64,000 nucleotides of DNA from Candidatus Latescibacterota bacterium (GCA_965214925.1 OZ244028.1:3592205-3656204), one strand, 5' to 3'; positions 1 to 25,365 are shown, counted from the first letter of the stretch. Numbers and translations are program-made. The notes: a model not told the origin generated them from the sequence alone.

Positions 1-441
1 ACGGACATTGCAAACCTCAAGCGCAAAGTCGAATCCGGCGGCGATATCGTTATCACACAGCTTTTTTACAACAACGATCACTTTTTTCGCTTTGTCGATC
101 GCGCGCGCGCAGCCTACATCACCGCGCCCATTGTGCCAGGCCTTATGCCCATCCTCTCGGCAGGGCAAATCCAACGCATCGCGTCTTTGTGCGGGGCCGA
201 GATCCCCGTGGACTTGCAGGACCAACTCAACCGCGCCAGAGACGATAAAGACACGGCCGTGCAAATCGGCATTGATCAGTGCATTGCCCAAGCGACCCAA
301 TTGCTCGAACAAGGCGCGCCGGGCATTCACTTTTACGTGCTCAACCAATCCACCCACATGCGCCGCATTATCAACGCCCTTCCCCTGAGCGCGGATGAAA
401 AATTTACGTCATCTGCGGTCAAATCTGCGCTTGGGTTGTGA
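1..441 (+). CDS. metF: 5,10-methylenetetrahydrofolate reductase, C-terminal part; the gene is truncated at the window start
   Basis: Frame-1 translation TDIANLKRKVESGGDIVITQLFYNNDHFF...PGLMPILSAGQIQRIASLCGAEIP matches conserved MetF C-terminal blocks. Stop codon at 439-441. Confidence 0.85.
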   Translation, partial: TDIANLKRKVESGGDIVITQLFYNNDHFFRFVDRARAAYITAPIVPGLMPILSAGQIQRIASLCGAEIPVDLQDQLNRARDDKDTAVQIGIDQCIAQATQLLEQGAPGIHFYVLNQSTHMRRIINALPLSADEKFTSSAVKSALGL

Positions 442-819
442 AAGGACCAGTCTTTTGAATACCAAACTTTTCGACCCGAAATTGATTAACAAACCCACTT
501 CTAACCGATATGCCTTCAAGTAATTTAATGTCTGTGCCATGTGTGCATCTTCCAATGCAGAGATAGCTTTCAATTCTACCAATACTTTTCCTTCGACCAC
601 AAAATCGGCTCTGCGCGTGCCAATGGGCTCTGACAATTCTTTGTAGAAAATGTGTTGCTCAATTTCACGCGCAAATGCCAACCCCGCCTGTGTCATCTCA
701 AACGCCAAGGCCCGCTGATAAATGACCTCTTGGAAGCCATTGCCCAAAAATTTATGCACTTCAAAGGCTGCCCCAATAATTTTTTCCGTTATCTCGCGAT
801 ATTTCAGACTGTTGCTCAT
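409..819 (-). CDS. GxxExxY-family protein (PD-(D/E)XK-like fold)
   Basis: Motif GNGFQEVIYQRAL is the GxxExxY signature. The probable start is the internal MSNSLKY at 819 rather than the upstream extension. Confidence 0.7.
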   Translation of the reverse strand: MSNSLKYREITEKIIGAAFEVHKFLGNGFQEVIYQRALAFEMTQAGLAFAREIEQHIFYKELSEPIGTRRADFVVEGKVLVELKAISALEDAHMAQTLNYLKAYRLEVGLLINFGSKSLVFKRLVLSQPKRRFDRR

Positions 820-842
820 TATCTCTTTTTTCCTCCCCTGAT

Positions 843-945
843 CGCGGATTGTCGCGGATGAAAGGATTGCGCGGATTAAACCCATTCCCTCTGCACGACC
901 CGTAACGTCTAATCCGCGCCATCTGTGTCATCCCCCTAATCCGCG
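843..945. promoter_or_regulatory. Cluster of five 8-bp CGCGGATT/AATCCGCG motifs, three forward and two inverted
   Basis: Forward copies at 843-850, 853-860 and 870-877; inverted copies at 911-918 and 938-945. The cluster lies in the upstream region of the GxxExxY gene and the 3' end of the methyltransferase gene. Related copies occur at 25887-25912. Confidence 0.3.
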
Positions 946-3900
946 ATCCACCGCAGTAATTTCTTCCTCCGTCAGCCTGTATAGCCCATAGACTAATCGA
1001 TCTATCTCCCCTTCCTGCTCCCCGGTGTCCACCGCCGGGTCGTCCGCTTTAGCTTGCAGGATGCGCTCCACCAAGCGAATGAACGGACGCTGCTTTTCGG
1101 CAGGGATTCCAGGGATGGGGATGACTTCAACCGAACTGCGAATCCATCGAGTTACTCCCATTCCAGAATTGAGTGCCGTGTTCCCCATAAACCAAGTGAT
1201 CAGGCGGGAGTTGAGTATCGCGCATAGATACTTAATTGCTTGCCCAGACATTATAAAGCAAGTGTTCACGCAGAACATTTCACCTTCGTTATAGGCAAAT
1301 CGCCCTTGCTCTGTCAGATCCATCCATACCAGCTTTTCTTTGGCAAATTCGTCGTGGTAGGCGCAGTTGCGGAGATTGTAAGGTGTCTTGCCTTTGTCCT
1401 GCCGCTTTTCCAGTCTCTGATAGAACGTGTCCAGATGGGCTTTGATGGCCGGGTAATCGTCAATGTTGATAGCGGGAACATCGCCGTATCCGCTGTGCGT
1501 ATCAATCAGCCATAACCCCGCCCATTGTGCTTGATACTGCTGAATATCCCGGCCGCGTAGCACAGGCTTGATGATCTCCGCGGAGTTCGGGTCTTTGGTA
1601 ACAAGTACCTGCCGGGTCGCATTGTCTATTATAAAAGCATTGTTGTAGCCGGTCTTGATACCCATGTTAATGGACACATCCCATTCTTTTAGCGGCGTCC
1701 CAATGGCCTCTATCTTGTCCATCACGCTCTGTTCGGTAGCCGAAAGCGCACTCCACGGCTTTTCACCTTGTGGTCGGAACTGTCCCCAAAGACTCGCGTC
1801 GGGCGGGAAGGTTTTATCGGTCAGACGGTCCATATCCACGGCCTTGCCGGTCTCGCCACTTTTGCCGTGACGCACGATCAGGATGTTCGTATCCACAATG
1901 GCGTTTTCAAAAACGTCCTTGCCCATTTCCAGCAGTTGCAGCGGCGTATGTTTCTCCGCGAAATAGCGGCGCGTCGCCTTGCCGTATTCCGCCTTTAGCC
2001 AACTGTTGGACGTGATGTAAGACAGCAGGCCGTGCTGCGGCTTCAGCAGTTGGCAACCTTTCTCGTAGAAAAGCTGGTAAACGTCGCCGGTGCGGGCGAA
2101 GGTGGCGTAGCCAGCGTCTTTGTAGAGCCGCCCCAATTCGCCGCGGTTTTTCTGCAACTGGATATACGGCGGATTGCCAATCACCACATCGAAGCCATCG
2201 GCGATGCCAAACATATACTCAGCGTCGAACCAATCCGCCTTTGCGTTCTGATCGTAGGGATCCCAATGCGCGATTTTATTGGCGTCGTCCTCGGGCAGGC
2301 CGGCCGCGTTCAATTCCCTTGCCAATGCCTCGCGCAACCTTTTGTCCTCGTTCTTGCACGCCAGCTTTTGTGGTCGCGTGGTCGCGTGAAAATGCCGCTC
2401 GCGGTTTTCCGCCAGTCTCGTTTTCAGGGTCTCGATCTGTTGACGGAACAAGTCCAGTTGATCCGCATCTTCGAGCTTCAGTAGCGTATTGGCCGCCACA
2501 AAGCGCGTCTCCAGATTGGGCAGCGGCTTGATGCCGAAGTTATCCGCGGCCTCATCTGCTTCCTGCTCAATGGCTAGCGAAATGAAGAAGCGCAACTTGG
2601 CGATCTGACAGGCGATGGACTGAATATCGACACCGAAGATGCTGTTTTGGATCAGGTACAGCTTGCGCCCGAAATCCGAGTCGCGGTAGTGCTCAAAGGT
2701 CTCGCTGATCTCTTTGAGTTCGGCATCGCGATCTTCCCAATCGTCCGTTTCGTACGCCGACCTCGTCCGTTCCATCGCGAGCTCTTTTTGCAACTGCTCC
2801 CAGCGGCTGTTGTCGGGGTCGAGCCGTTTTAAGGCCAAGGTCAGTTTGTGCAACACGCCCATGGGAAACGCGCCAGAACCGACCGCCGGGTCGAGCACCT
2901 TGATCTCGGAAATCGTCCGCATAATCCCTGCCGCTTCGTCTGCCTCAAAAAGTTCATGGGCATCGTTGAACTCATCCTCATAATCCAACAAATAGCGCAG
3001 CCGTTCCTGCCAGAAATCGCGGTCGCCATCATCGGGTCGCGCTTTTTCCGTCAAAAACGCCACCAACGCCTCATCCACCATGTAGTCCACTACGGCGCGG
3101 GGCGTGTAGTAGGAGCCGGTCTGCTTGCGGGCGGTGTCGCGGGTCTCTGGGTTGTAGGCTGCCAACAGGTTCTCAAACACTTTGCCGAGAAGCTCCGGGT
3201 CGAGCGCGACTTCCTGTTCGGCGGGCGTGTTTTCCTCCACCGTGAACTTGTAGCGATTGAATAGGGTGATCAGCCCGTCGGCGCACCCTGAGCCTGCCGA
3301 AGCGTCGTCAAAGAACAGGCGGTTGGGAATGCTCAATTTGTGGTAATGGACGTCGGAAAAGCAGTCAATGCGCCAACCGCCATACGTTGTAGCCTCCTCG
3401 CTGTCCAAGCAGTCGAATAGCCCGCCGTTGATAAAGGGCGTTTGGCAAAACAAGGCCAAGAGCGCGTCCGGGTCGCGCATTTCTTGCTTGTAGCGATAGC
3501 GGGAGAAATCGCGGTGGGTGGCGTTTTTCACTTGGCTAAAACCGCGCGTGTCGATTTCGGTGTTGAGAGTAGCGAAAAACAGGTTTTGCAACACCGCGCG
3601 ATAATAGGAGTCGCCACCGTCGCGGTCATAGTTTTTCAGCAGAGGGCGGATTTGCGCCTCAATGAACAGGGCGTCGGCGATGAGTCCTTTTTCCTTGATG
3701 AACCAGACGAATAGCAGGCGGGTGATGAGACGGATGACGTGTTCTTCGGCGTGCAGAGTTCGCGCTTCGCTGGTCGGGAACCGCGCCTCGTTGACCGCGC
3801 GCTCAAACCATTCGTACAAGTCTCGGTAGAACCGCCGGTTCAGTTCCTCGGTGTCCAAGGCGTCCAGCCAAGCGTCTAACAGGCCGTCAAAATTGTGCGC

Positions 3901-4602
3901 TCTGTCGTGCTTGCTCATCCACCCCAAGCGGTCGTCCAACGCCAAGTCCGCCAGTATGTCGAGATGGGCGCGGTGTGGATCGGCCGGGTCGATCTCCCGT
4001 ATCAGCGACACACTGCCCAGCACATCGCGCTCGGGATCGCGCCGATGCGGGCGGCGGTGAACAAAGGACAGGGAGAGGAGGCTGTCAGCGGTCTTGAACA
4101 GCACCACGGCCGGCATTGGAAATCGCTTGTTGATCTCGCGGGTAAATGCGGCGTATTGGCCGCGGGGGTAGGACGTGCCCTTTAGCTCCACAGCGGCAAA
4201 GAGGAAGCTACGCGCGTTGCCTGTGTCAAAATCGCCCGTGTTGAACAGCGCACTTGAACTGCTGGCGCAGTTGTACCCCGGTGGCGCGGGCGCGACTTCA
4301 TCATCGGTCAACTGAAAAATGAGCCGCACGGATTGGGCGTTCTCGCGGAATGCCTGCTCGGTGTGAACTGCTGGCGCAGTTGTACCCCGGTGGGTGTTTT
4401 CATTGGACGCTGGGAATTGCTCGATAAAGTCATCCGCGCTTCCCGAAAGTGCCACCGTGCGCTCGCTCTGATAGCCGAGGACTTTGAGCAGGGCTTTGCT
4501 ATCCGACAAAAAATCCCCGTGAACTGCTGGCGCAGTTGTACCCCGGTGGGGCACAGCCGCCAAAGCAGACCGAATGCGCGCTATGAGATCGCCATTGCTC
4601 AT
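928..4602 (-). CDS. Type IIG/IIL-like restriction-modification fusion protein (MmeI/PglX-like): N-terminal PD-(D/E)xK nuclease, central N6-adenine methyltransferase, C-terminal target-recognition region
   Basis: Methyltransferase motif I LDPAVGSGAFP and motif IV VIGNPPYIQ. N-terminal GDFDTGN...FAAVELK gives a D...ExK nuclease motif. Total ~1,220 aa. The probable start MSNGDL at 4602 has an AAGGA ribosome-binding site and overlaps the upstream helicase stop as ATGA. Confidence 0.8.
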   Translation of the reverse strand: MSNGDLIARIRSALAAVPHRGTTAPAVHGDFLSDSKALLKVLGYQSERTVALSGSADDFIEQFPASNENTHRGTTAPAVHTEQAFRENAQSVRLIFQLTDDEVAPAPPGYNCASSSSALFNTGDFDTGNARSFLFAAVELKGTSYPRGQYAAFTREINKRFPMPAVVLFKTADSLLSLSFVHRRPHRRDPERDVLGSVSLIREIDPADPHRAHLDILADLALDDRLGWMSKHDRAHNFDGLLDAWLDALDTEELNRRFYRDLYEWFERAVNEARFPTSEARTLHAEEHVIRLITRLLFVWFIKEKGLIADALFIEAQIRPLLKNYDRDGGDSYYRAVLQNLFFATLNTEIDTRGFSQVKNATHRDFSRYRYKQEMRDPDALLALFCQTPFINGGLFDCLDSEEATTYGGWRIDCFSDVHYHKLSIPNRLFFDDASAGSGCADGLITLFNRYKFTVEENTPAEQEVALDPELLGKVFENLLAAYNPETRDTARKQTGSYYTPRAVVDYMVDEALVAFLTEKARPDDGDRDFWQERLRYLLDYEDEFNDAHELFEADEAAGIMRTISEIKVLDPAVGSGAFPMGVLHKLTLALKRLDPDNSRWEQLQKELAMERTRSAYETDDWEDRDAELKEISETFEHYRDSDFGRKLYLIQNSIFGVDIQSIACQIAKLRFFISLAIEQEADEAADNFGIKPLPNLETRFVAANTLLKLEDADQLDLFRQQIETLKTRLAENRERHFHATTRPQKLACKNEDKRLREALARELNAAGLPEDDANKIAHWDPYDQNAKADWFDAEYMFGIADGFDVVIGNPPYIQLQKNRGELGRLYKDAGYATFARTGDVYQLFYEKGCQLLKPQHGLLSYITSNSWLKAEYGKATRRYFAEKHTPLQLLEMGKDVFENAIVDTNILIVRHGKSGETGKAVDMDRLTDKTFPPDASLWGQFRPQGEKPWSALSATEQSVMDKIEAIGTPLKEWDVSINMGIKTGYNNAFIIDNATRQVLVTKDPNSAEIIKPVLRGRDIQQYQAQWAGLWLIDTHSGYGDVPAINIDDYPAIKAHLDTFYQRLEKRQDKGKTPYNLRNCAYHDEFAKEKLVWMDLTEQGRFAYNEGEMFCVNTCFIMSGQAIKYLCAILNSRLITWFMGNTALNSGMGVTRWIRSSVEVIPIPGIPAEKQRPFIRLVERILQAKADDPAVDTGEQEGEIDRLVYGLYRLTEEEITAVDRGLGG
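4255..4549. repeat. Three direct copies of a 30-bp palindromic element TGAACTGCTGGCGCAGTTGTACCCCGGTGG inside the 5' coding region of the methyltransferase gene
   Basis: Copies at 4255-4284, 4364-4393 and 4520-4549. The core AACTGC-TGGC-GCAGTT is a perfect 6-bp inverted repeat. Copies 2 and 3 are translated as HRGTTAPAVH. A fourth copy lies at 26959-26984. Confidence 0.8.
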
Positions 4603-5555
4603 GTCTGATCCTTTGCAATAATCAGCCATGTTACCAATTCAAAATCAACATGGCTCGGTTTTGTGGATTTAGCCGGCAGTCTGAAATCGCGCGAGCCGCG
4701 AATGCCCAATTGTCGGATTTGCCTTGCGGTGTTCGCCCCGCTGATGTGGGCAATGACCGCGTCCAACAATTTGTTGTAACGCGCCATGTCCCGGCCGTTT
4801 TGGGTATCGCTGTCAAACTGATCGCAAAGTCTTTGAAGCGGTTCGGTCTTGCCAACAGCCGCGGATTCAAACAACTCGAGCACCTGTCTGGCATTGGCAC
4901 AACCGTAGCGAATATCGCCTGTCTGCCGTGCCGGCACAGGCAGGCCGCTGTCGCGGATGTACACGGCATAGTACGGATGAATTGGGCTGGCGGATTTTTC
5001 CCGCTTGTCCGCGCCGGCATTGCGCTGGCGCAAAAAAAATATCGCGCCCGAGCGTGCGATGTCGCCCTTCCCGTCGGTTACGGCGTATGATCCGTTGGGC
5101 GTTGCTTCCAGTTCCGCCTTGTTTTTCTTCAAATACCGCAACAACTGGGCAAAAAAGTAATCGAGCGTAAAGTCGCTCATAACGACGCCGTCGGACAACT
5201 CGTCCAAGTCCAGAACCTCTTCGCGCATTTTCTTTAATTGCTCGTCGCGGAAGTTAAGCTCCATCTGAATCTGGTCAGCCGGGTCTTCGTTCAACGGATC
5301 GTCGTCGCCGCTACCCGCCGCGTCCGCCAAAGCCATGCGCGCTTCAACGCGGTTTCGCAGGCGCAAATAGACGTCCATGTCCCGCGTGGGCCAGTAGTTG
5401 ATCATTTGCACCGATGGGTTGCGACTGCCAATGCGGTCAACGCGCCCGAAACGCTGGATGATACGCACCGGATTCCAGTGGATGTCGTAGTTGAGCACGG
5501 TGTCGCAATCTTGCAGGTTCTGTCCCTCCGAAATGCAATCGGTGGCAATCAGCAA
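4599..5555 (-). CDS. SNF2-family helicase, C-terminal (helicase C) fragment; the downstream half of a frameshifted PLD-SNF2 gene
   Basis: LIATDCISEGQNLQDCDTVLNYDIHWNP...QRFGRVDRIG matches SNF2 motifs V and VI. The frame is open upstream of the annotated Met (..ATDIDGEIDLLIATD) and is +1 relative to the upstream ORF. Confidence 0.7.
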   Translation of the reverse strand: MLIATDCISEGQNLQDCDTVLNYDIHWNPVRIIQRFGRVDRIGSRNPSVQMINYWPTRDMDVYLRLRNRVEARMALADAAGSGDDDPLNEDPADQIQMELNFRDEQLKKMREEVLDLDELSDGVVMSDFTLDYFFAQLLRYLKKNKAELEATPNGSYAVTDGKGDIARSGAIFFLRQRNAGADKREKSASPIHPYYAVYIRDSGLPVPARQTGDIRYGCANARQVLELFESAAVGKTEPLQRLCDQFDSDTQNGRDMARYNKLLDAVIAHISGANTARQIRQLGIRGSRDFRLPAKSTKPSHVDFELVTWLIIAKDQT

Positions 5556-5556
5556 A

Positions 5557-7887
5557 TCAATTTCGCCATCTATGTCGGTCGCGGGCGCGCCCGCGCGCCC
5601 GCGGCGCGAAGTTGGTCAAGATCGCGTTGAAATTATTGTCGCCAAACGCGGTGCGCGTGGCGTCGCCACAGACCATCGCCATGTGTATCTCGAGTTCGTT
5701 TGCCAAATCCGCCAAGTTCTCGTAAAGGTATGCCGCCGTGTCCTTGAATGTGGTGAACACCAGCATTTTGCGGTTGGTCTTGCCATCCTCGTCCATCGTC
5801 GGATTTCGCGCCTTGTCCCGAATGCGCGCCTTAATCGCTTCGAGCTTGCCGTCCCGCTCGGGCGTGATCTCGGCGACCTTTTTCCACACCGCGGTCAGAA
5901 CTTTTTTGTCGTTGAGCAAATCCTTCTTCCAGCGGGGCAAATCCAACTCGCGCAGGTGATAGGGCGTGCGCGCCCGATTGATCAGAAACTCCTCGTCGTC
6001 CTCGTCGTCATTCGGGAGGATGTCGGCTTGTTCGTCCAACAGCAGGTTTTGCCCATAGCGGTCTATCTTTTTTAACAGATCGTCAATTTTGCCGACCGTG
6101 CGCCCGAGGGTTTCCGTCAGCGCGTGCGCGGAACTCTCCAAGCGTTTGAGAAAGTTCGTCCGCATCATGCCGATGAGGAATCGCTCGCGGTCCTCCTGAT
6201 TGAACCGCAGTTGCTTTTTTTCATTCGCCAACCGCTTTTTTGCCTCTTCGCCGGTGACATAGCCAGATGGCCGGTAAATGGACAGGGCGAATTGCCCGAT
6301 TTGCTCGGACAAATCCCGATAGGAAAGTTCGCGCGTGACGTCGGTCAGCGGATAGCCATTTTCCGGCGGCAACTGCGTGGGAAAATCGCCGATGCGGTGC
6401 ATTTCCTCGGCATAGAACGTCTCGATCTGTCGCCGCGAGCGCGCGATGGAAACGCCGCCCAACAACAACAAAAAATCAGCCCCCAGCGAATCCAACAACT
6501 CGCCCTTGTCTTTTTTTTTCGCGTTGGACTCCCAGGCCTTGAACTCCTTTTGCGCCTGTCCGAGCAAGGTGCCGATATGTCCAATGCCCAGACTTTCCCG
6601 GAACACATCCTCGCGCTTTTCGGTCATCAGATAAATCTGATTGCGGAGGTCGATGAGCGAGGTATTGACCGGCGTCGCGGAAAGCATCAGCACCTTGGTT
6701 TGCGTGCCTTCTTTGATCACTTCCTCCAACAGCCGCGAGTAGCGGCTGTGGCGAATTTTGCCATCATCGTCCAATCGGGGCTTGGTATCATTGCGGAAGT
6801 TGTGCGATTCGTCAATGACCACCACATCGAGATTGCGCCAGTTGAAATTTGCCAGATCAATATCGCCGGCTCGTCCCCTGCTGCGAGACAAGTCCGTGTG
6901 CGACAACAACGTGTAGCCAAAGCGATCCGCGGCAAAAGGATTGTGGGCATGGGCGTTATACACCGGATATAGCGCCCAGTTTTCGCGCAGCTTTTTGGGG
7001 CACAAGACCAGCACGCGCTCGTTTCGCAACTCAAAGAACTTGATCACCGCCAACGCCGTGTAGGTCTTTCCCAAGCCCACGCTGTCGGCCAAGATGCAGC
7101 CGTTGTGCCGCAACAAACGGGCGATCGCGCTTTTGGCGCCGTCTTTCTGAAAGCCGTACAGCGCGTTCCAAATCCGCGTGTCGTACAGGTGCGTATCCTC
7201 GAGTTGGCTTTCGCCCTTTTGTCTGTCTTCTATATCTGCCCGAAACAACTCGTAGAGCGTTTTGTAATAGATAAATTCCGGCGCGCAGTCTTTGCCGATT
7301 CGCGCCAGCGCGGCCAACACCTCCTTTTTGACATCCACAGTCAACGCGCGGTCTGCCCACAGGTCGTCAAACCACGCGCGCAGTTCCGCGCAGATTTCCG
7401 CGTCGCAGGTCGCCAGGTTGATTTCCATATTTGCGCGCGTCCCCCCGCCCAAGCCGCTGCGCGTGAAGTTGGAACTGCCGACCACCGCTGCGCCGCGGTT
7501 GGGCGATTCCGCGAGATACATCTTGCCATGCAGAAAATTGGATTTGCCGACAGAGCGGATTTTGACCCCTTTGCCGCGCACCCATGCGGCGCATTGCCGC
7601 GCCACATATTTCTGCTGCAACGCGCGATTCGGCGAGAGTCTGCCTTCGGTCAGGTCAAAAAATTTCCGCGCGCGCTCGCCGGGGTCCAACTCGCCAACCG
7701 ATGCCGGATCTCCAAAGAGAAACCGCACATCCCCGACGCGGGCGAGCGCGTCCTTCAGCAATTCATAGCCGTAAATGGTAAAATACGCGGAAACCAGCCT
7801 GAATACCTTCGCGGAGGGCAAATGTCCGCGCAGATAATCCGCGACCCGCTCGCGGCGATTGTCCAGAATGTGTTCGTATTTTTGCAT
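5557..7887 (-). CDS. PLD-family nuclease domain fused to an SNF2 helicase N-terminal ATPase domain; the upstream half of the frameshifted gene
   Basis: HKD motif HGKMYL...GSSNFT. Walker A GLGKTYT, DEAH-like VVIDESHNFRN and motif III LMLSATPV. Start MQKYEHIL at 7887 follows a GGGGGAG ribosome-binding site. The ORF terminates inside the GC repeat at 5581-5608. Confidence 0.75.
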   Translation of the reverse strand: MQKYEHILDNRRERVADYLRGHLPSAKVFRLVSAYFTIYGYELLKDALARVGDVRFLFGDPASVGELDPGERARKFFDLTEGRLSPNRALQQKYVARQCAAWVRGKGVKIRSVGKSNFLHGKMYLAESPNRGAAVVGSSNFTRSGLGGGTRANMEINLATCDAEICAELRAWFDDLWADRALTVDVKKEVLAALARIGKDCAPEFIYYKTLYELFRADIEDRQKGESQLEDTHLYDTRIWNALYGFQKDGAKSAIARLLRHNGCILADSVGLGKTYTALAVIKFFELRNERVLVLCPKKLRENWALYPVYNAHAHNPFAADRFGYTLLSHTDLSRSRGRAGDIDLANFNWRNLDVVVIDESHNFRNDTKPRLDDDGKIRHSRYSRLLEEVIKEGTQTKVLMLSATPVNTSLIDLRNQIYLMTEKREDVFRESLGIGHIGTLLGQAQKEFKAWESNAKKKDKGELLDSLGADFLLLLGGVSIARSRRQIETFYAEEMHRIGDFPTQLPPENGYPLTDVTRELSYRDLSEQIGQFALSIYRPSGYVTGEEAKKRLANEKKQLRFNQEDRERFLIGMMRTNFLKRLESSAHALTETLGRTVGKIDDLLKKIDRYGQNLLLDEQADILPNDDEDDEEFLINRARTPYHLRELDLPRWKKDLLNDKKVLTAVWKKVAEITPERDGKLEAIKARIRDKARNPTMDEDGKTNRKMLVFTTFKDTAAYLYENLADLANELEIHMAMVCGDATRTAFGDNNFNAILTNFAPRARGRARDRHRWRN

Positions 7888-7922
7888 CTTGCTCTCCCCC
7901 CTCAATGAGCAGTGTTTTGCCC

Positions 7923-14775: not shown

Positions 14776-14806
14776 AGCTTTCAGTGGTCAGTGGTCAGCA
14801 CCCGCC
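14776..14806. repeat. Dispersed element, copy A: AGCTTTCAG-TGGTCAG-TGGTCAG-CACCCGCC
   Basis: Sits immediately 5' of the yceD start codon and over the ndk stop. Related copies at 25557-25585, 29614-29639 and 31874-31904. Confidence 0.6.
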
Positions 14807-15228
14807 CGAAGCGAGACGCCAGAATCCCGCGTTCCAAAAAAGAAGGCCACTTCTTTGCCCGCGTTTTCCGGTGAATCTGAGGCGTGTACCGCGTTGTTTT
14901 GAATGTCGGTGGCAAAGTCTTTGCGAATAGTGCCTTCCGCGGCGTCTGCGGGATTGGTGCTCCCAATGGTTTGGCGCAAAAACGCGACGGCATTGTCTCG
15001 GTCGAGCACCATGGGCACACAGGGGCCAGAGGTCATAAAATCGAGTAGGTCATGGTAAAAAGGCCGTTGGCGATGCACTGCATAGAACTCGGCGGCCTGT
15101 TCTCGCGTGAGGCGCACCATTCTCAGGTCTGCCACCCGAAAATTTTTTTCTTCCAGACGGCGAATGATTTCACCAATTGCGTTTTGTGCAACTGCATCGG
15201 GTTTGATGATGAGCAAGGTGCGTTCCAT
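14788..15228 (-). CDS. ndk: Nucleoside diphosphate kinase
   Basis: LLIIKPDAV, active-site region NAVHASDS and terminal EVAFFF. Confidence 0.9.
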   Translation of the reverse strand: MERTLLIIKPDAVAQNAIGEIIRRLEEKNFRVADLRMVRLTREQAAEFYAVHRQRPFYHDLLDFMTSGPCVPMVLDRDNAVAFLRQTIGSTNPADAAEGTIRKDFATDIQNNAVHASDSPENAGKEVAFFFGTRDSGVSLRAGADH

Positions 15229-15356
15229 GCATGAACTCTGTGTGGGGAAATGCGGTTCGCGTCGGCTTGAGAATAGACAAGTTAGGATTTGATCTTTTTT
15301 TTGTCAACCCCATTTTTAGAAGCGTTCGCGCCTGTAATTTGTTCAAAAGAAAGGGG

Positions 15357-15385
15357 TTGACACGAGTCCAATTGGAGACTTTAAT
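15357..15385 (+). promoter_or_regulatory. Putative sigma70-type promoter of the ether-lipid operon
   Basis: TTGACA (15357-15362), 17-bp spacer, TTTAAT (15380-15385), about 50 bp upstream of the FAR start. Confidence 0.3.
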
Positions 15386-15435
15386 TAGGGCACTTTTGGA
15401 AAGTGATTTTTTTTCTGCATTTTGGGGTTTTTGTT

Positions 15436-17052
15436 ATGAGCGTCGTTATTCCATTTTTGAATCACAAAGTTCTTTTTGTCACGGGTGCAACGGGTTTTTT
15501 GGGCAAGGGATTGGTGGAAAAGATCCTTCGCCATGTGCCGGATATTGGACGCATCTATCTCATGGTGCGCCCCCGAAGCCGAGGGGCAGGCAAGCCCGTG
15601 AGCACCGAAGACCGCCTTCAACGAGAGGTTTTGCAATCCAATGCCTTTGCGCGATTGCGCGCGGAACTCGGAGATCGATTTGACGCTGTGATGCGCGAAA
15701 AAGTCACGGCTGTGCCGAGTGACTTGACAGAAGACCGCCTCGGCATGGACGCCGAGACTTATGCGCGGTTGACCCGCGAAGTCGATATCGTGATCAACAG
15801 CGCAGCCACTGTGGTTTTTGACGAACCTCTGGATCTGGCCCTGGCTCAGAATACCCTCGGTACCATGCGCGTGGTCGAATTTGCCAAAGCGTGTCGCAAT
15901 GCCGTGCTCGTACACGTTTCAACGGCTTATGTCAATGGGCGGCAAAAGGGCGTGATTTCTGAAGACGCGCCCGTGCCCGATCACACTGTGGCACAGCAGA
16001 TGGGAGAGGGGCGCGCGCCCGATTACCATCTGGATTCGGAGATCGAAAGCATCCTGGCATATCGCCGCGAAGTCGAGGAGGCGTCGCGAAGCCCCGATCG
16101 ATTTGCCGAATTTACGCGTTTGCTCAACCGAAAAGACCGGGGCAAGCGCGTGACCGCGCATCGGCGGGAACACCAGATGGAGGCGTTGCGCCAACGCTGG
16201 ATCAGAGAGCGGATGGTGGCGCGCGGCACGCAGCGCGGGCGCGCGTTGGGCTGGCACGACAGTTATTCTTTTACCAAAGCCATGGGCGAGCAGATGATCG
16301 CCAAGACCCGGGGCAAGTTGCCGACTGTGATCGTCCGACCGTCAATTATCGAGAGCAGTTTGTCCGATCCCGAGCCCGGATGGATCGAGGGGCTCAAGGT
16401 GGCCGACCCGCTCATTGTACACTATGGCAAGGGGCGTTTGATGGATTTCCCCGCGCGCCCAGAAGCGATTTTAGACATTATTCCCGTGGATATAATTATC
16501 AATGCGATCATCGGTGTTTTGCCTTCCATCCATGCGGGGTCCAATTTGAAGGTTTATCACGTGACAACAGGTGCAAATAATCCGGTCACCATGGGCGAGG
16601 TCGCCCACTATGTGTACGAGTATTTTGTGAAAAACCCCATGCGAGATCGCAATGGCAACCCCATTGCGGTGGCGAAGTGGTCCTATCCGACGTTGTCCCA
16701 ATTCCGTCGAAAGTTGCGTTATCAATACCAGTTGCCACTCAAAATGATGCAGTGGGCCCTGAACCGGGTGCCACTGGTCGATGTTTCAAAACAGAAACGA
16801 CATTTGTCAATATTAGACGCCACATTGGAAAATACGCTGTCATTAACCAACATTTACGCGTCTTATATTTCTTTGGATTGCGTGTTTCAAAACGACCATA
16901 TCAATCGGCTGTTTGACGGCATGGATGCAGAAGATAAAGCAATTTTCAATTGCGATGTCTCGCGCATCAATTGGCCCGCATACATCAAAGAGATCCACGT
17001 TCCCGGCTTGCAACGCCACGTGCTCAAAACAGATGTGGCGAAAGGAAGTTGA
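15436..17052 (+). CDS. Fatty acyl-CoA reductase (alcohol-forming, FAR1-like; NAD_binding_4 plus FAR_C domains)
   Basis: TGATGFLGKGLVEKIL Rossmann motif, YVNG active-site region and RPSIIESSLSDPEPGWIEG, which mirrors eukaryotic FAR RPSIV..EPFPGWID. Confidence 0.8.
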   Translation: MSVVIPFLNHKVLFVTGATGFLGKGLVEKILRHVPDIGRIYLMVRPRSRGAGKPVSTEDRLQREVLQSNAFARLRAELGDRFDAVMREKVTAVPSDLTEDRLGMDAETYARLTREVDIVINSAATVVFDEPLDLALAQNTLGTMRVVEFAKACRNAVLVHVSTAYVNGRQKGVISEDAPVPDHTVAQQMGEGRAPDYHLDSEIESILAYRREVEEASRSPDRFAEFTRLLNRKDRGKRVTAHRREHQMEALRQRWIRERMVARGTQRGRALGWHDSYSFTKAMGEQMIAKTRGKLPTVIVRPSIIESSLSDPEPGWIEGLKVADPLIVHYGKGRLMDFPARPEAILDIIPVDIIINAIIGVLPSIHAGSNLKVYHVTTGANNPVTMGEVAHYVYEYFVKNPMRDRNGNPIAVAKWSYPTLSQFRRKLRYQYQLPLKMMQWALNRVPLVDVSKQKRHLSILDATLENTLSLTNIYASYISLDCVFQNDHINRLFDGMDAEDKAIFNCDVSRINWPAYIKEIHVPGLQRHVLKTDVAKGS

Positions 17053-17057
17053 TCGCT

Positions 17058-19004
17058 ATGCCGACACGCGACAAATTAGACCCCCGTCCCTTGCACGAAA
17101 CCCTGCTCGACAATACAGAGCAGATGTTGGCGATTTACGACCAATCGGTTCAGTACCTGCTCGAAGCCGTGCGACACGATGGCTATTTTGACGGTCTCGC
17201 GCCCGACGCGCTCGTGTGGCCGAAAAACCAGAGCGGGGCGATGGATCTCGAGGCGTTGCAATTTCGCGCTCAGATCGTGGATGCGATTTTTCGCGGCCTG
17301 CCCGAGATTCGCAATGTGCGTTTGTACGAGGCATATCGCCCGTTTGCGGATCTGCTTCCGCAGTATCACGCGGGCAGCCGGATGTATTTGCAACTCCGAC
17401 GGCAATTTGTCGCGCGCGGCAGAGGTGATGCCCGAGATTTTTTGAAATTGTATCAATCCCTGTATTTGAAGGCACTGGCCGGGGGCGAGTTGCACGCGCC
17501 CGAAGCCGTGGAAGAGGCCCTGGCGCAAGTGCATATTACGCAGGTGCCAATGTCGCATGCGCGGGCTGTTGCCGAGGCCCTTGGCGATGTTGCGGTGGAT
17601 GACGATGCGCACTGGGCAGAGGGGTATGTTTGCGAAATAGATGGCGCGAGCGTGGAAGGCGCGTTGCGCGATTTGTTGCAAGACGTGGCACAGCGCACGC
17701 TCAATCTGATTGCCGCGGGCGGTTTGCTGGCAACGCGATACAACTATCTGACAAATTTTGGCTGGTTTGGCGTCTCGGTGTGGAAGGTCATTGTCGATGC
17801 CGAGGTGGCCCTGGCGCAGGTGCGCGGTGCCTGCCCGGAGTCCGTTCTGAATTTGATCGATGAGGATGTGGCGCGCATGAAGGCATTGTTGATCGAATTT
17901 TTGCACGCCCATCAGGAGGATCCCACAAAGCTGCGCTCCAAGTTGTATTGGTATGGGCAAGAGTACAGCTATTTGACGCGGGATATGATCGATCTCTCCG
18001 TTAAACTCCTCGGCGATGTCAACGCGCAGATCAATCGCCTAGGACAAAAAATTTCGCGCTTGGAAATGCCCCCCTTGCTCGCGGATACCGCGCGCGGGCG
18101 ATTTTTGGAATATCCCAATGTGGGACGCAGGGGGCAATTTTCACGCGCGCAGCGGGGAATGCGTTTTGCCAGATGGATGGCGTTGTCGCTCAGGGTGGGA
18201 TGGAAAAAAAAGAAATTGTTGCACAAAGAAGCCGATCCCATTCGCCGCCGCGAAGCCGGGTGGCGCGCATGGCTCAATTGGGGGCGTCGCACGCTGGATA
18301 TTTTCGATATTCGGGTGCGCGTTTATATCGATCCCCATTTTGAAGCCGTTGCGCGGGATTTGAGGGCCGACAGAGAAAACCGCCGCCTTCTTTTTTTGCC
18401 AACGCATCAGAGTTTGTTTGACCATCCGGTTTTGTACGAAGTCTTGCAGTCCAAAGCATTTTGGGATGCGATGGGCTGGGAAAGGCCCGAACCGTGTGTG
18501 ATTTTGGCGCGCACGGGACTGGCGCGTTCGGGCATCAAAATTGGGTCGAAACAGATCACGCAATTTGGAATGTCGTCTGAGGCTTTTGACCACATTCTGG
18601 AAAATGTCGATGGCTATGTCATGCTCGAGCGGTCCCGTACCGCAGGGCATACGACGCAACGCGTGGCGCGGGCATTGACAGAGCGACCAGGCGTTATTTA
18701 TCCCATGGCGACGACCGCGGCGTTTGCCATTCAGCAATTTCCGCTTCAGCATGGGGTATTTGCACAATTGCCCCAGGATGTGGTGATTGTGCCGATTGCC
18801 TATCGCGGCCTTCACGCGCTGTGGCCCAAATGCCCAAAGGGAAATATCAATATCAACCCGGGGCAGGTCGATGTGTGGGTCTCGCCGCCCATGCTGGGCG
18901 AGACCGCGCTGCTGCCCAAAAGGCGGTCGTTGCGGATTCAGTCCGAAGCTGCCGCGCTATTTCAAGCCGTGCATATTGCCACATTGCTGAATCCGGAAGA
19001 ATGA
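17058..19004 (+). CDS. GNPAT/PlsB-like glycerol-phosphate/DHAP O-acyltransferase (HxxxxD acyltransferase with a ~420-aa N-terminal extension)
   Basis: LFLPTHQSLFDHPVLYEVL is acyltransferase block I (HX4D), close to mammalian DHAPAT LPTHRSYIDFL. ATG at 17058 lies 5 nt after the FAR stop. Confidence 0.65.
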   Translation: MPTRDKLDPRPLHETLLDNTEQMLAIYDQSVQYLLEAVRHDGYFDGLAPDALVWPKNQSGAMDLEALQFRAQIVDAIFRGLPEIRNVRLYEAYRPFADLLPQYHAGSRMYLQLRRQFVARGRGDARDFLKLYQSLYLKALAGGELHAPEAVEEALAQVHITQVPMSHARAVAEALGDVAVDDDAHWAEGYVCEIDGASVEGALRDLLQDVAQRTLNLIAAGGLLATRYNYLTNFGWFGVSVWKVIVDAEVALAQVRGACPESVLNLIDEDVARMKALLIEFLHAHQEDPTKLRSKLYWYGQEYSYLTRDMIDLSVKLLGDVNAQINRLGQKISRLEMPPLLADTARGRFLEYPNVGRRGQFSRAQRGMRFARWMALSLRVGWKKKKLLHKEADPIRRREAGWRAWLNWGRRTLDIFDIRVRVYIDPHFEAVARDLRADRENRRLLFLPTHQSLFDHPVLYEVLQSKAFWDAMGWERPEPCVILARTGLARSGIKIGSKQITQFGMSSEAFDHILENVDGYVMLERSRTAGHTTQRVARALTERPGVIYPMATTAAFAIQQFPLQHGVFAQLPQDVVIVPIAYRGLHALWPKCPKGNININPGQVDVWVSPPMLGETALLPKRRSLRIQSEAAALFQAVHIATLLNPEE

Positions 19005-23469: not shown

Positions 23470-25365
23470 ATGAACCCACAAGTATCCATTCCCAAGACTC
23501 AGATCGCTTCGTTTTGTCAAGCTCGAGGAATCAAGCGGCTTGCCATCTTCGGTTCTGCACTGCGTTCCGATTTCGGGCCGGACAGCGATATCGACGTGCT
23601 CGTCGAATTTGAGCACGGCCACACGCCCGGATTCTTGGGGCTCGCCGACATATCGGCCGACGACCTTGAAGGTATGCTGGAAGATGACTCCGATGTTGCC
23701 GATATCGCAGGGGCAACTGGAGGGACATCTGAAAATGTACAGCGAGAGCTCGCATTGCTTAACCACGCCATCGCAGAGTTAGAACAAGTTGAAGACGACT
23801 CCAAAGCACAAGTACTTGTTGAACAACTTACTGAGATATTCAACAATCACGCGAACGAAAAAGTGATTGTGTTCACCCAGTTTCGTGAGACTCAGCGCTA
23901 TCTTGAGGAAAAACTCAGAGAGCGAGGTTGGGGTGTCAGTCTTTTCCATGGGCAATTGAACCCCAAAGAAAAGGATCGCGCTGTGGAGCGTTTTCGCGAT
24001 GGCACCGGCCCGCAAGGCCCGCAAGTACTCATCAGCACAGAGGCGGGCGGGGAAGGGCGAAACTTGCAGTTCTGTCATCTGCTGGTCAACTATGACTTGC
24101 CTTGGAACCCGATGAAAGTCGAGCAACGCATCGGCAGAATCGACCGCATCGGGCAGAACCACCCAATTAGCATCTTCAATTTTGGGGTCAAGGATACCAT
24201 TGAGGATCGTGTACTCGAGGTATTGGAGAATCGTATCAGATTGTTCGAAGATACTGTGGGCGGCCTCGACCCAATTCTCGGCGATGTCGAGAGCGATAGT
24301 AAGAAAATCATGCGCGTCGCTGAAGATAAACGAGAGGCAGCTATCGCCAAATTAGGAAAGCGCGTGGAGGAAGATATACGCAACGCCAGGGAAGCAGGGG
24401 AACTGCTTGACGACTTCATTATGGACACAAAGTCGTACCGAAAAGAAATAGTCGAGCGTATCTTAGGGCAACCCTCGCCTGTTAACAATGACGACTTTGA
24501 GCAGTTTATTGGACAGAGCCTCGCCGATGTACGCACATACATCAAACAAACCGGAGATATGTACGAGTTGACTTTCCATGGTGACTTTTTCGATACCCAT
24601 CAGCGGCATCTCTTTCCCAGGGGACGGAAAATGAGGGCGGTGTTCCGTCCAGACAGCCGGTCCGACGCGGAGGATGTCGAATTTATGGCCTTCGGCCACA
24701 AAATCGTCAATGTCATTGTCGAACAAATTCTCAACGAGGAATATGAAGGAGTGACCGGCACCCGTCGCATTGCTGCGGACAGCGACCTATCTCCCACAGC
24801 CGGGTGGCTTTTCACCTACCAGTTCACCACGTCTGGTGCGCGTCCCATCGAAAAGGTCATGCCGGTTTTCGTGAGCGATAGTGGCGAGATTGATTTGCAG
24901 ACAGGACACCATCTTTTGCGGCGTGCTTTCCGGTTTGACAGCACAGAGACAGAAATCAATCGGGATGAGATTCCCAACAATCTTAACGAGAGTTATTCTC
25001 GGGCAGATGGGTTCGCTAACGCGGAGAGGGAGAGAATCCAGCGGAAGGCACAACAGGAGGCCACAGAGAGGGCTGACCGGGAAGTCTCCAGGATCGAGAA
25101 GTTATTCGACTATAAAGAACGTGGAGCTAGCGATAAGGTGAAAGCTGCTCGAACCACGCTGAATTGTCTTCGAGAAAGTGGCGATGAGTCGCAGCGTCAG
25201 ATTTTGCCTGTCTGGGAAGCCAATTTACGACGGGCCGAGGAATTATCCGCCAAATTGGCCGAAGATCGCTGTCGTCAGATTGCTGAGGTGGAGAAATATC
25301 GTCACCCACAAGTTGATTGGGCACTGAAGTCACTCGGCCGTATTGAGGTGGTAGTTCGCAAATAG
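23470..25365 (+). CDS. Chimeric ORF: truncated minimal nucleotidyltransferase N-terminus fused to the C-terminal half of a RapA/HepA-like SNF2 helicase; no DEXH ATPase N-domain
   Basis: AIFGSALRSDFGPDSDIDVLVEF (NTase) then VIVFTQF...VLISTEAGGEGRNLQFCHLLVNYDLPWNPMKVEQRIGRIDRIGQ (helicase C motifs IV-VI). No Walker A/B anywhere in the ORF. Confidence 0.6.
   Translation: MNPQVSIPKTQIASFCQARGIKRLAIFGSALRSDFGPDSDIDVLVEFEHGHTPGFLGLADISADDLEGMLEDDSDVADIAGATGGTSENVQRELALLNHAIAELEQVEDDSKAQVLVEQLTEIFNNHANEKVIVFTQFRETQRYLEEKLRERGWGVSLFHGQLNPKEKDRAVERFRDGTGPQGPQVLISTEAGGEGRNLQFCHLLVNYDLPWNPMKVEQRIGRIDRIGQNHPISIFNFGVKDTIEDRVLEVLENRIRLFEDTVGGLDPILGDVESDSKKIMRVAEDKREAAIAKLGKRVEEDIRNAREAGELLDDFIMDTKSYRKEIVERILGQPSPVNNDDFEQFIGQSLADVRTYIKQTGDMYELTFHGDFFDTHQRHLFPRGRKMRAVFRPDSRSDAEDVEFMAFGHKIVNVIVEQILNEEYEGVTGTRRIAADSDLSPTAGWLFTYQFTTSGARPIEKVMPVFVSDSGEIDLQTGHHLLRRAFRFDSTETEINRDEIPNNLNESYSRADGFANAERERIQRKAQQEATERADREVSRIEKLFDYKERGASDKVKAARTTLNCLRESGDESQRQILPVWEANLRRAEELSAKLAEDRCRQIAEVEKYRHPQVDWALKSLGRIEVVVRK

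Follow-up and report, generated by a model that had tools for sequence, protein, structure and literature searches.

Helicase-nucleases that work beside a methyltransferase have precedents in Hma (PMC11232893), in the BR systems (PMC12839542) and in the helicase-methyltransferase pairs of ARMADA and DISARM (PMC12458937). In MANTIS, cryo-electron microscopy shows the effector MtsD as a PLD-SF2 dimer, whose catalytic residue is H122, and the authors compare it with BfiI and SauUSI (10.64898/2026.09.23.753747). HKD domains fused to SWI2/SNF2 ATPases in restriction-modification (RM) contexts were noted by earlier comparative work (PMC3417536), and a table of Milman et al. lists a 'Type II RM (Cj0031-like) CDS with an adjacent PLD+SNF CDS' (PMC9881135). 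Here, we analyze such a pair in a stretch of 64,000 nucleotides from a Candidatus Latescibacterota bacterium (GCA_965214925.1 OZ244028.1:3592205-3656204), the whole of which is called the window below. The pair consists of a gene for a PLD-nuclease/SNF2 helicase and a gene for a large N6-adenine methyltransferase with a target-recognition domain (TRD). With slightly more confidence than doubt, we propose that it forms a two-component, ATP-dependent, RM-like defence module in which the methyltransferase and its TRD mark self DNA, the PLD-SNF2 protein restricts in trans, and both are coupled through a DUF4391-like domain. The interpretation given by a first-pass annotation of the window, an unnamed, split RM-like pair of helicase-nuclease and methyltransferase, was right in spirit, and no named system in PADLOC or NCBIfam fits the pair. 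Its features are as follows.

4599-7887, minus strand: helicase-nuclease gene, ~1,095 aa once repaired (open reading frame (ORF) calls, Pfam, PADLOC, homologs)
7357-7800, minus strand: N-terminal PLD/HKD nuclease domain with a single HKD motif (PLDc_2, E 8.7e-12; RE_NgoFVII PLD weak)
4599-4602, minus strand: ATGA overlap of the methyltransferase ATG (4602-4600) with the helicase TGA (4601-4599), read from the sequence
928-4602, minus strand: methyltransferase gene, 1,224 aa, with a DUF4391-like domain, a helical region, a gamma-class N6-adenine methyltransferase and a TaqI_C-type TRD
3958-4602, minus strand: N-terminal DUF4391-like alpha/beta domain, ~residues 1-215 (PF14335 and hhalign; core of the AlphaFold2 (AF2) model with a predicted local distance difference test score (pLDDT) of ~90)
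1813-2922, minus strand: methyltransferase catalytic domain (Eco57I and N6_Mtase by Pfam), both motifs kept in homologs
1114-1569, minus strand: TaqI_C-like TRD (TaqI_C, E 3.4e-13), within the most variable region, residues 901-1180

MANTIS (MtsABCD; Gao_RL, Type-2 BREX-related) resembles the pair in its effector, which joins an N-terminal HKD/PLD domain to an SF2/Snf2 motor (H122 in MtsD, H120 here), in its N6-adenine methyltransferase as self-marker and in its small adaptor-like component. It differs in requiring the DUF499 AAA+ ATPase MtsA and the DUF3780 protein MtsB, neither of which is present or conserved here; the window helicase matches the HmaA and BR helicase models weakly (24-53 bits), and DUF4391 is a separate family. 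Classifications as Azaca and as Hma were considered and rejected. In Type III (Mod + Res) and Type ISP (LlaGI) enzymes, too, a methyltransferase/TRD sets an asymmetric site, while a helicase-type ATPase fused to a nuclease restricts DNA that is unmodified. The motor here, however, is an SNF2 protein with an N-terminal PLD domain rather than a Rad25-like or ISP motor with PD-(D/E)xK or Mrr. Moreover, the Type III Mod is beta-class, whereas the window methyltransferase is gamma-class with its own TRD, and Type ISP enzymes are one polypeptide, whereas the window system and its homologs have two genes. SauUSI, CglI/NgoAVII and BfiI likewise cleave DNA with an HKD/PLD nuclease, to which SauUSI and CglI/NgoAVII add ATP-driven helicase-like motors. 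Yet SauUSI, which belongs to Type IV, has an SRA TRD of its own, CglI and NgoAVII split nuclease and motor otherwise and have C5 methyltransferases as partners, BfiI has no motor domain, and DUF4391 is found in none of them.

A conserved operon of helicase-nuclease and methyltransferase

One genome per species was scanned, and 80 loci were kept out of at least 595 helicase relatives. Seventy-five of these have enough downstream sequence to be evaluated, a partner being counted when it lies on the same strand within 4.5 kb downstream of the helicase. A methyltransferase homolog is present there in 67 of the 75 loci (89%), with a match that includes the N-terminal region, and the identities of helicase and methyltransferase covary from locus to locus, with Spearman coefficients of 0.77 (N-domain) and 0.70 (core). 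The overlap of the helicase stop with the methyltransferase start, as read in the first pass, is present in the sequence, and in the close homolog L081 the two genes overlap as well, by 8 nt. Together, the conservation and the overlapping codons argue against a chance neighbourhood: the helicase-methyltransferase pair is a genuine conserved operon, and the two-gene arrangement noticed in the first pass is real. The closest relatives are found in metagenome-assembled genomes labelled Binatia, Latescibacterota, Poribacteria, Caldilineaceae and Spongiisociaceae, and more distant ones in Proteobacteria, Verrucomicrobia, Cyanobacteria, Bacteroidota and Bacillota. Clustering of all neighbouring ORFs gave no third gene in more than 10 of the 80 loci. 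Genes of the brx, pgl, drmA/B and DUF499 types are absent among the window ORFs of at least 400 aa outside the islet, and none is conserved with the pair across the 80 loci, which thus give it no constant partner of the canonical BREX or DISARM kind.

Class 1 DISARM (DrmD, DrmMI, DrmA, DrmB and the PLD protein DrmC) and ARMADA (the Snf2 protein ArmA, the PglX-like ArmB, and YprA) share with the pair an SNF2 helicase next to a large N6-adenine methyltransferase, and a PLD nuclease. DrmD (NF038317) is the best named NCBIfam relative of the helicase (61-67 bits against a cutoff of 610), and the two plasmid relatives that were compared with its model, L082 and L089, reach 153-157 bits. Both systems differ in that neither DrmA/DrmB nor YprA occurs in the window or in the 67 pair-only loci, and in that PLD is fused to SNF2 here. 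The DrmA/DrmB (DUF1998) core was seen only on the Bacillus cereus plasmid pJ75_1, beside a four-gene relative of the pair. Assignment as DrmD and DrmMI equivalogs was rejected (67 against 610 bits for DrmD; 61 bits with the PADLOC model for DrmMI). The first-pass comparison with a split Type ISP enzyme, or with DISARM lacking DrmA/B, was reasonable and functionally apt, DrmD being the nearest named relative, though with a score below its cutoff, and DrmA/DrmB lying upstream on pJ75_1.

The helicase gene most likely starts at ATG 7887, with the ribosome-binding site GGGGGAGAG ahead of it. Pfam detects PLDc_2, SNF2-rel_dom, ResIII/DEAD and Helicase_C, with PLDc_2 spanning residues 36-183 in the numbering of the ORF from TTG 7905, or ~30-177 counted from ATG 7887. 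The product is indeed the PLD-nuclease/SNF2 protein of ~1,100 aa described in the first pass, and all its motifs are intact: HKD (H120-G-K...GSSNFT, with the H120 codon at 7528-7530), Walker A (GLGKT 271), DESH 359 and motif VI (QRFGRVDR). H120, K122 and GSSNFT do not vary in the homolog alignment, and homologs likewise share the residues of HKD, Walker A, DExH and motif VI without exception. The repaired protein has thousands of these (at least 8,000); intact ones measure 1,072-1,110 aa, with identities up to 81%. The PADLOC model 'C3a139 HKD+Snf2' (PDLC01075) matches the window helicase with 215+104 bits and L076 with 472 bits. NF042964 PLD_Helicase ('PLD anti-phage protein') was rejected at 80 bits against a cutoff of 1100, and a sequence search of the PDB returned generic SNF2 and methyltransferase matches only.

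In the window, the helicase gene is broken into two ORFs (5557-7905 and 4599-5555) by a single change.

5583-5585, minus strand: +1 insertion in a CCC run, shifting the frame between NFAPRARGRA and TDIDGEIDLLIATDC (three-frame translation, homolog comparison)

Deletion of one C from this run gives NFAPRARGRAATDIDGEIDLL, in agreement with intact homologs (L004 has NFAPMARGRAATAGGDIDLL), and the homolog consensus runs unbroken across the site. The deposited genome annotates a shortened helicase product of 776 aa (P0052); therefore, the frameshift belongs to the deposited assembly. It cuts the helicase short ahead of motifs V and VI. Unless the extra C is a homopolymer error of the assembly, this copy is probably defective, being R-minus and M-plus, with restriction dead and methylation probably still active.

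The 1,224-aa product of the second gene, read from ATG 4602, is on record as P0121. It contains the Pfam domains Eco57I (residues 662-907), N6_Mtase and TaqI_C, with motif I (DPAVGSGAFP) at residue 571 (2863-2892) and motif IV (NPPY) at residue 810 (2164-2175), which bears out the N6-adenine methyltransferase motifs and the target-recognition region recognized in the first pass. In the TRD region (residues 901-1180), 5% of the columns are at least 70% conserved, compared to 36-38% in the core; such hypervariability is what RM systems usually show where their specificity diversifies. The PADLOC model REase_MTase_IIG scores 469 bits, with an alignment from ~residue 384 onward. The more specific assignments considered in the first pass do not hold, as hidden Markov model comparison places the protein below the curated cutoffs for the PglX, DrmMI and MmeI types alike: PglX/BREX was rejected at 78.8 bits against 500 (NF033452) and MmeI at 22 bits against 27 (MmeI_Mtase), in addition to DrmMI.

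Some related loci carry extra genes. Lodged between helicase and methyltransferase are genes for a DUF1016/YhcG PDDEXK protein, a Schlafen(AlbA_2)-HATPase_c_4-wHTH protein, Fic and a 23S-IVS four-helix-bundle protein with Zn ribbon (L022, L031, L033, L038, L040, L042, L043, L050, L052, L053, L056, L057, L066, L072 and L080), hitchhikers of the kinds that Type I RM and BREX loci also harbour. An SMC_N/ABC-type ATPase of ~500-560 aa is encoded directly 3' of the methyltransferase in L020, L024, L034, L046, L048, L056, L059, L061 and L065, and in L075 it follows an upstream-placed methyltransferase and precedes the helicase; this ATPase (~10 loci) could serve as an optional third component or as a backup effector. 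The closest intact pair, L081, lies in a defence island with a C5 DNA methylase, a HATPase_c_3 (MORC-like) protein and an AAA_14/DUF4143 protein (14786-18152).

The DUF4391-like domain and its standalone relatives

PF14335 (DUF4391) was matched in 15 of 24 N-domains of the methyltransferase family (best E 7.9e-6, Pfam scan), and hhalign aligned the N-domain family with standalone DUF4391 proteins over 128-131 columns at a probability of 89% (E 2.2e-6). Both share the motifs P-x-P...LF and (H/R)KR...D...V. DUF4391 has no model in PADLOC, and in the literature it was found only in work unrelated to defence. The window copy of the domain is interrupted at three places.

4254-4284, 4363-4393 and 4519-4549, minus strand: three in-frame insertions of ~30 nt with one sequence, inside the DUF4391-like domain

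The inserted sequence, CCACCGGGGTACAACTGCGCCAGCAGTTCA, holds the hairpin AACTGC/GCAGTT, and all three copies fall within codons 1-120 of the methyltransferase gene. Translation gives HRGTTAPAVH for two copies and, in another frame, PPGYNCASSSS for the third. All are missing from the 81%-identical homolog L081 and sit in low-pLDDT loops of the model. No further copy is present in the 64-kb window, and the exact 27-mer is absent from the metagenome contigs.

Standalone versions of the domain accompany the helicase elsewhere. In L074, L076, L078 and L079, which have the most divergent helicases of the locus set, a standalone DUF4391 gene is followed by a Type III Mod-type methyltransferase gene, without the Eco57I-type; L076 additionally carries a Res-like gene. 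The helicase family is also present on 136 plasmids, where it adjoins RM, toxin-antitoxin and abortive infection (Abi) genes. Seven plasmid loci were inspected (Escherichia coli pHS30-1, Acinetobacter sp. NEB149 pMsp65, Acetobacter, Listeria, Enterococcus, B. cereus and Vibrio), all of which have the order helicase, DUF4391, site-specific DNA methyltransferase. A DEAD/DEAH Res-like gene comes next in six of them, while Acetobacter has an insertion sequence element after the methyltransferase instead. The small gene of Listeria and Enterococcus is annotated as a 185-aa 'hypothetical', and hhalign assigns the Listeria copy to DUF4391 at 96%. A tblastn search of the plasmids with the window N-domain itself found nothing.

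This unnamed plasmid operon (PLD-SNF2, DUF4391, Type III Mod-like, Res-like) resembles the window pair in having the same helicase family (35-39% full-length identity, same PADLOC C3a139 model) and a DUF4391 module right after the helicase with the methyltransferase next. It differs in that DUF4391 is a separate gene of ~185-320 aa, whereas it is fused to the methyltransferase in the window, and in that its methyltransferase is a beta-class Type III Mod (N6_N4_Mtase) with a Res-like gene in six of seven cases, whereas the window has a gamma-class Eco57I/TaqI_C enzyme and no Res. From the standalone and fused arrangements together, it follows that the constant core is the PLD-SNF2 helicase with DUF4391, the class of methyltransferase varying. 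The adaptor role proposed below stops short of Lactococcus pJM1F and Nostoc, since the methyltransferase N-domains of both have no detectable similarity to DUF4391.

Two of the plasmid loci deserve mention for their arrangement. On B. cereus pJ75_1 (L089, 1628-15370), DrmA and DUF1998 (DrmB-like) genes lie directly upstream of a cassette of helicase, DUF4391, Mod-like and Res-like genes, which may represent a six-gene, DISARM-like variant. On pJM1F of Lactococcus cremoris (L085, 1671-10164), the genes of a PLD-SNF2 helicase and an Eco57I/TaqI_C methyltransferase precede an inverted TaqI_C fragment and the gene of an Mpi-family invertase, an arrangement that resembles a phase-variable, invertible TRD shufflon on the same kind of pair.

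The four-gene operons invite the explanation that PLD-SNF2 and DUF4391 constitute a portable add-on or backup effector for a self-sufficient RM or DISARM system, which might boost restriction or counter anti-restriction proteins, with the two-gene form as a degenerate remnant. A complete Type III Mod and Res-like pair follows helicase and DUF4391 in these operons, so that PLD-SNF2 may there be an add-on and not the sole effector; on pJ75_1, DrmA and DUF1998 stand directly upstream, and BREX and BR loci often contain auxiliary nuclease effectors (PMC12839542). As an account of the pair itself, we nevertheless consider this unlikely. The pair stands alone in 67 loci, no other gene cluster occurs in more than 10 loci, and a Res-like gene is lacking in the window islet and in most loci, while the fusion of DUF4391 to the methyltransferase implies an obligate partnership.

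A further explanation concerns the place that the DUF4391-like domain occupies in the protein. Like the Type IIG/IIL enzymes (Eco57I, MmeI, Cj0031, DrdV), the large protein is a single chain with a helical spacer, a gamma-class N6-adenine methyltransferase and a TRD, in which the motifs FxNGGLF, YTP, FxGxG and NPPY and the strong PADLOC IIG alignment from ~residue 384 are found. The first-pass annotation took it for a Type IIG methyltransferase-nuclease with a PD-(D/E)xK head (D...ELK). The letters are indeed there, as D126...E139-L-K141 on a beta strand of the alpha/beta domain, but their columns vary freely across 43 and 24 diverse homologs in two alignments: the E139 column also holds A, K, H, R or P, and lysine occupies position 141 in only about one third of the sequences. 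The invariant residues of the N-domain lie elsewhere (Y44, Q97, F135, R155, N158, P164 and H213). When the protein was scanned in pieces, the first 231 residues matched nothing, and similarity to the PADLOC Type IIG profiles began at ~residue 384, equivalent to profile position ~316, which indicates that the nuclease-bearing part of Type IIG enzymes has been replaced here. Unlike those enzymes, the window protein thus has no conserved PD-(D/E)xK head, its first ~380 residues are unmatched by their profiles, and its gene is paired with a helicase-nuclease gene; the Type IIG methyltransferase-nuclease of the first pass gives way to a methyltransferase with a DUF4391-like N-domain.

One may still suppose that the large protein is an autonomous Cj0031/Eco57I-like Type IIG enzyme with an active PD-(D/E)xK nuclease, next to which PLD-SNF2 is an independent or auxiliary neighbour. 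The 469 bits with REase_MTase_IIG and the position of D126...E139-L-K141 on the strand agree with this, as does the label 'Type II RM, Cj0031-like' given to such genes by Milman et al. (PMC9881135). Conservation of D126 and E139 amounts to at least 90% in the closest clade, so that a residual nuclease is possible there. Foldseek with the AF2 model of the N-domain gives weak and uninformative matches (E ~1) that include Hjc and splicing endonucleases. Against it stand the variation of K141 and, family-wide, of D126 and E139 next to the invariant Q97, R155, N158, P164 and H213, the lack of any Type IIG profile over residues 1-380, the match of the N-domain to DUF4391 instead, and the 89% operon conservation with overlapping stop and start codons, which a chance neighbour would not be expected to have. 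We regard an autonomous enzyme of this type as quite improbable.

Proposed mechanism

From the architecture of the two proteins, the conservation of the operon and the precedents cited above, we infer a division of labour between the two-component module's subunits. The large protein would be the modification and specificity subunit, its TaqI_C-type TRD reading a short DNA target at which the gamma-class domain would N6-methylate adenine and so mark self DNA. As MmeI and PglX-type enzymes do, it probably modifies a single strand of an asymmetric site, which is thereby left hemimethylated. This subunit lacks a conserved nuclease, the DUF4391-like domain sitting where Type IIG enzymes have their PD-(D/E)xK head. 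The PLD-SNF2 protein would act as the restriction subunit, in trans: its SNF2 motor would translocate on unmodified DNA, and the HKD domains of two helicase copies would pair into one PLD active site and cut the DNA, two copies being needed because each protein has a single HKD domain; MtsD, SauUSI and BfiI act in this manner. DUF4391 would be the adaptor that joins the motor-nuclease to the methyltransferase defining the target, in fused form here and as a small gene of its own beside Type III Mod-like enzymes.

In a broader and more tentative form, which we hold to be possible but somewhat less than an even bet, DUF4391 would be a dedicated adaptor plugging one PLD-SNF2 family into unrelated methyltransferases, either by fusion (gamma-class) or in trans (beta-class Mod), and sometimes beside DrmA/B. 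The two-gene pair would then be the minimal form of a widespread and as yet unnamed class of ATP-dependent restriction systems, and many 'Type IIG' calls would concern nuclease-less subunits for specificity and modification.

Several observations weigh against the proposed module, in addition to the conservation of D126 and E139 in the closest clade and the full Type III Res of the four-gene relatives mentioned above. The link to DUF4391 is of moderate statistical strength (the 89% of hhalign), and the PF14335 match of the window protein itself is weak (E 0.37). The window copy has a frameshifted helicase and three insertions in its N-domain, the AF2 model of the helicase is poor (pLDDT 51.7), and our literature search found no paper that names or tests the pair, but only one passing mention.

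A role outside defence, be it as an SNF2 remodeller that aids access or spread of the methyltransferase for epigenetic regulation (a bacterial analogue of DDM1/LSH) or as the decayed RapA-like housekeeping gene considered in the first pass, appears highly improbable: it draws on SNF2 family membership, on weak RapA matches and on the position of the islet among housekeeping genes with a GC content not markedly different from its surroundings, yet the RapA-like assignment was rejected (21 bits, with the cutoff at 576), the HKD nuclease motif does not vary within the family, helicase-bearing plasmids number 136 with RM, toxin-antitoxin and Abi genes adjoining, the TRD is hypervariable and part of an invertible shufflon in the Lactococcus relative, and defence hitchhikers are embedded in related loci. 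The first-pass assignment of the islet to defence is upheld.

Flanking genes and wider meaning

The islet (409-7905, minus strand) comprises three genes by ORF calls on the window, between the C-terminus of metF on the left and an lplA-like gene on the right, as first annotated. The third gene lies downstream of the pair.

409-819, minus strand: GxxExxY / PDDEXK_3 gene, likely start ATG 819 (TIGR04256, 131 bits; PF13366)

It had been counted as a possible part of the module. No GxxExxY homolog occurs in any of the 80 related loci, and the gene is therefore a hitchhiker rather than a member. A direct repeat, TTCATCCGCG...TCAGGGGA, brackets it at 381-399 and 834-862 (minus strand) and is found nowhere else in the window, with 0 expected by chance; this bracketing suggests a small cassette that was inserted or acquired separately. 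The observations of the first pass are thus largely correct and fail on the nuclease head and on the membership of GxxExxY. Scans for promoters and terminators gave nothing above chance. Elsewhere in the window, an ORF of 631 aa (23470-25365, plus strand) combines an N-terminal NTP_transf_2 domain with a subsequent Helicase_C, an unusual combination in which no N-terminal helicase lobe was detected.

We consider the pair to be of moderate interest, since it is minimal, widespread and amenable to experiments and supplies a hypothesis for DUF4391, which thereby gains a concrete and testable role. Within the methylation-based helicase-nuclease defences (DISARM, ARMADA, Hma, MANTIS), a group that keeps growing, the pair would be a minimal newcomer, and its two genes would offer an easier setting than systems of four to six genes for studying how unmodified sites are handed over from methyltransferase to motor. 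Thousands of genes annotated as 'Eco57I-domain / Type IIG' may be mis-annotated, being modification and specificity subunits whose nuclease is a separate PLD-SNF2 motor. Effects of the family on horizontal gene transfer and on phage therapy are also probable, as its members are frequent on E. coli, Acinetobacter, Listeria, Enterococcus and Bacillus plasmids.

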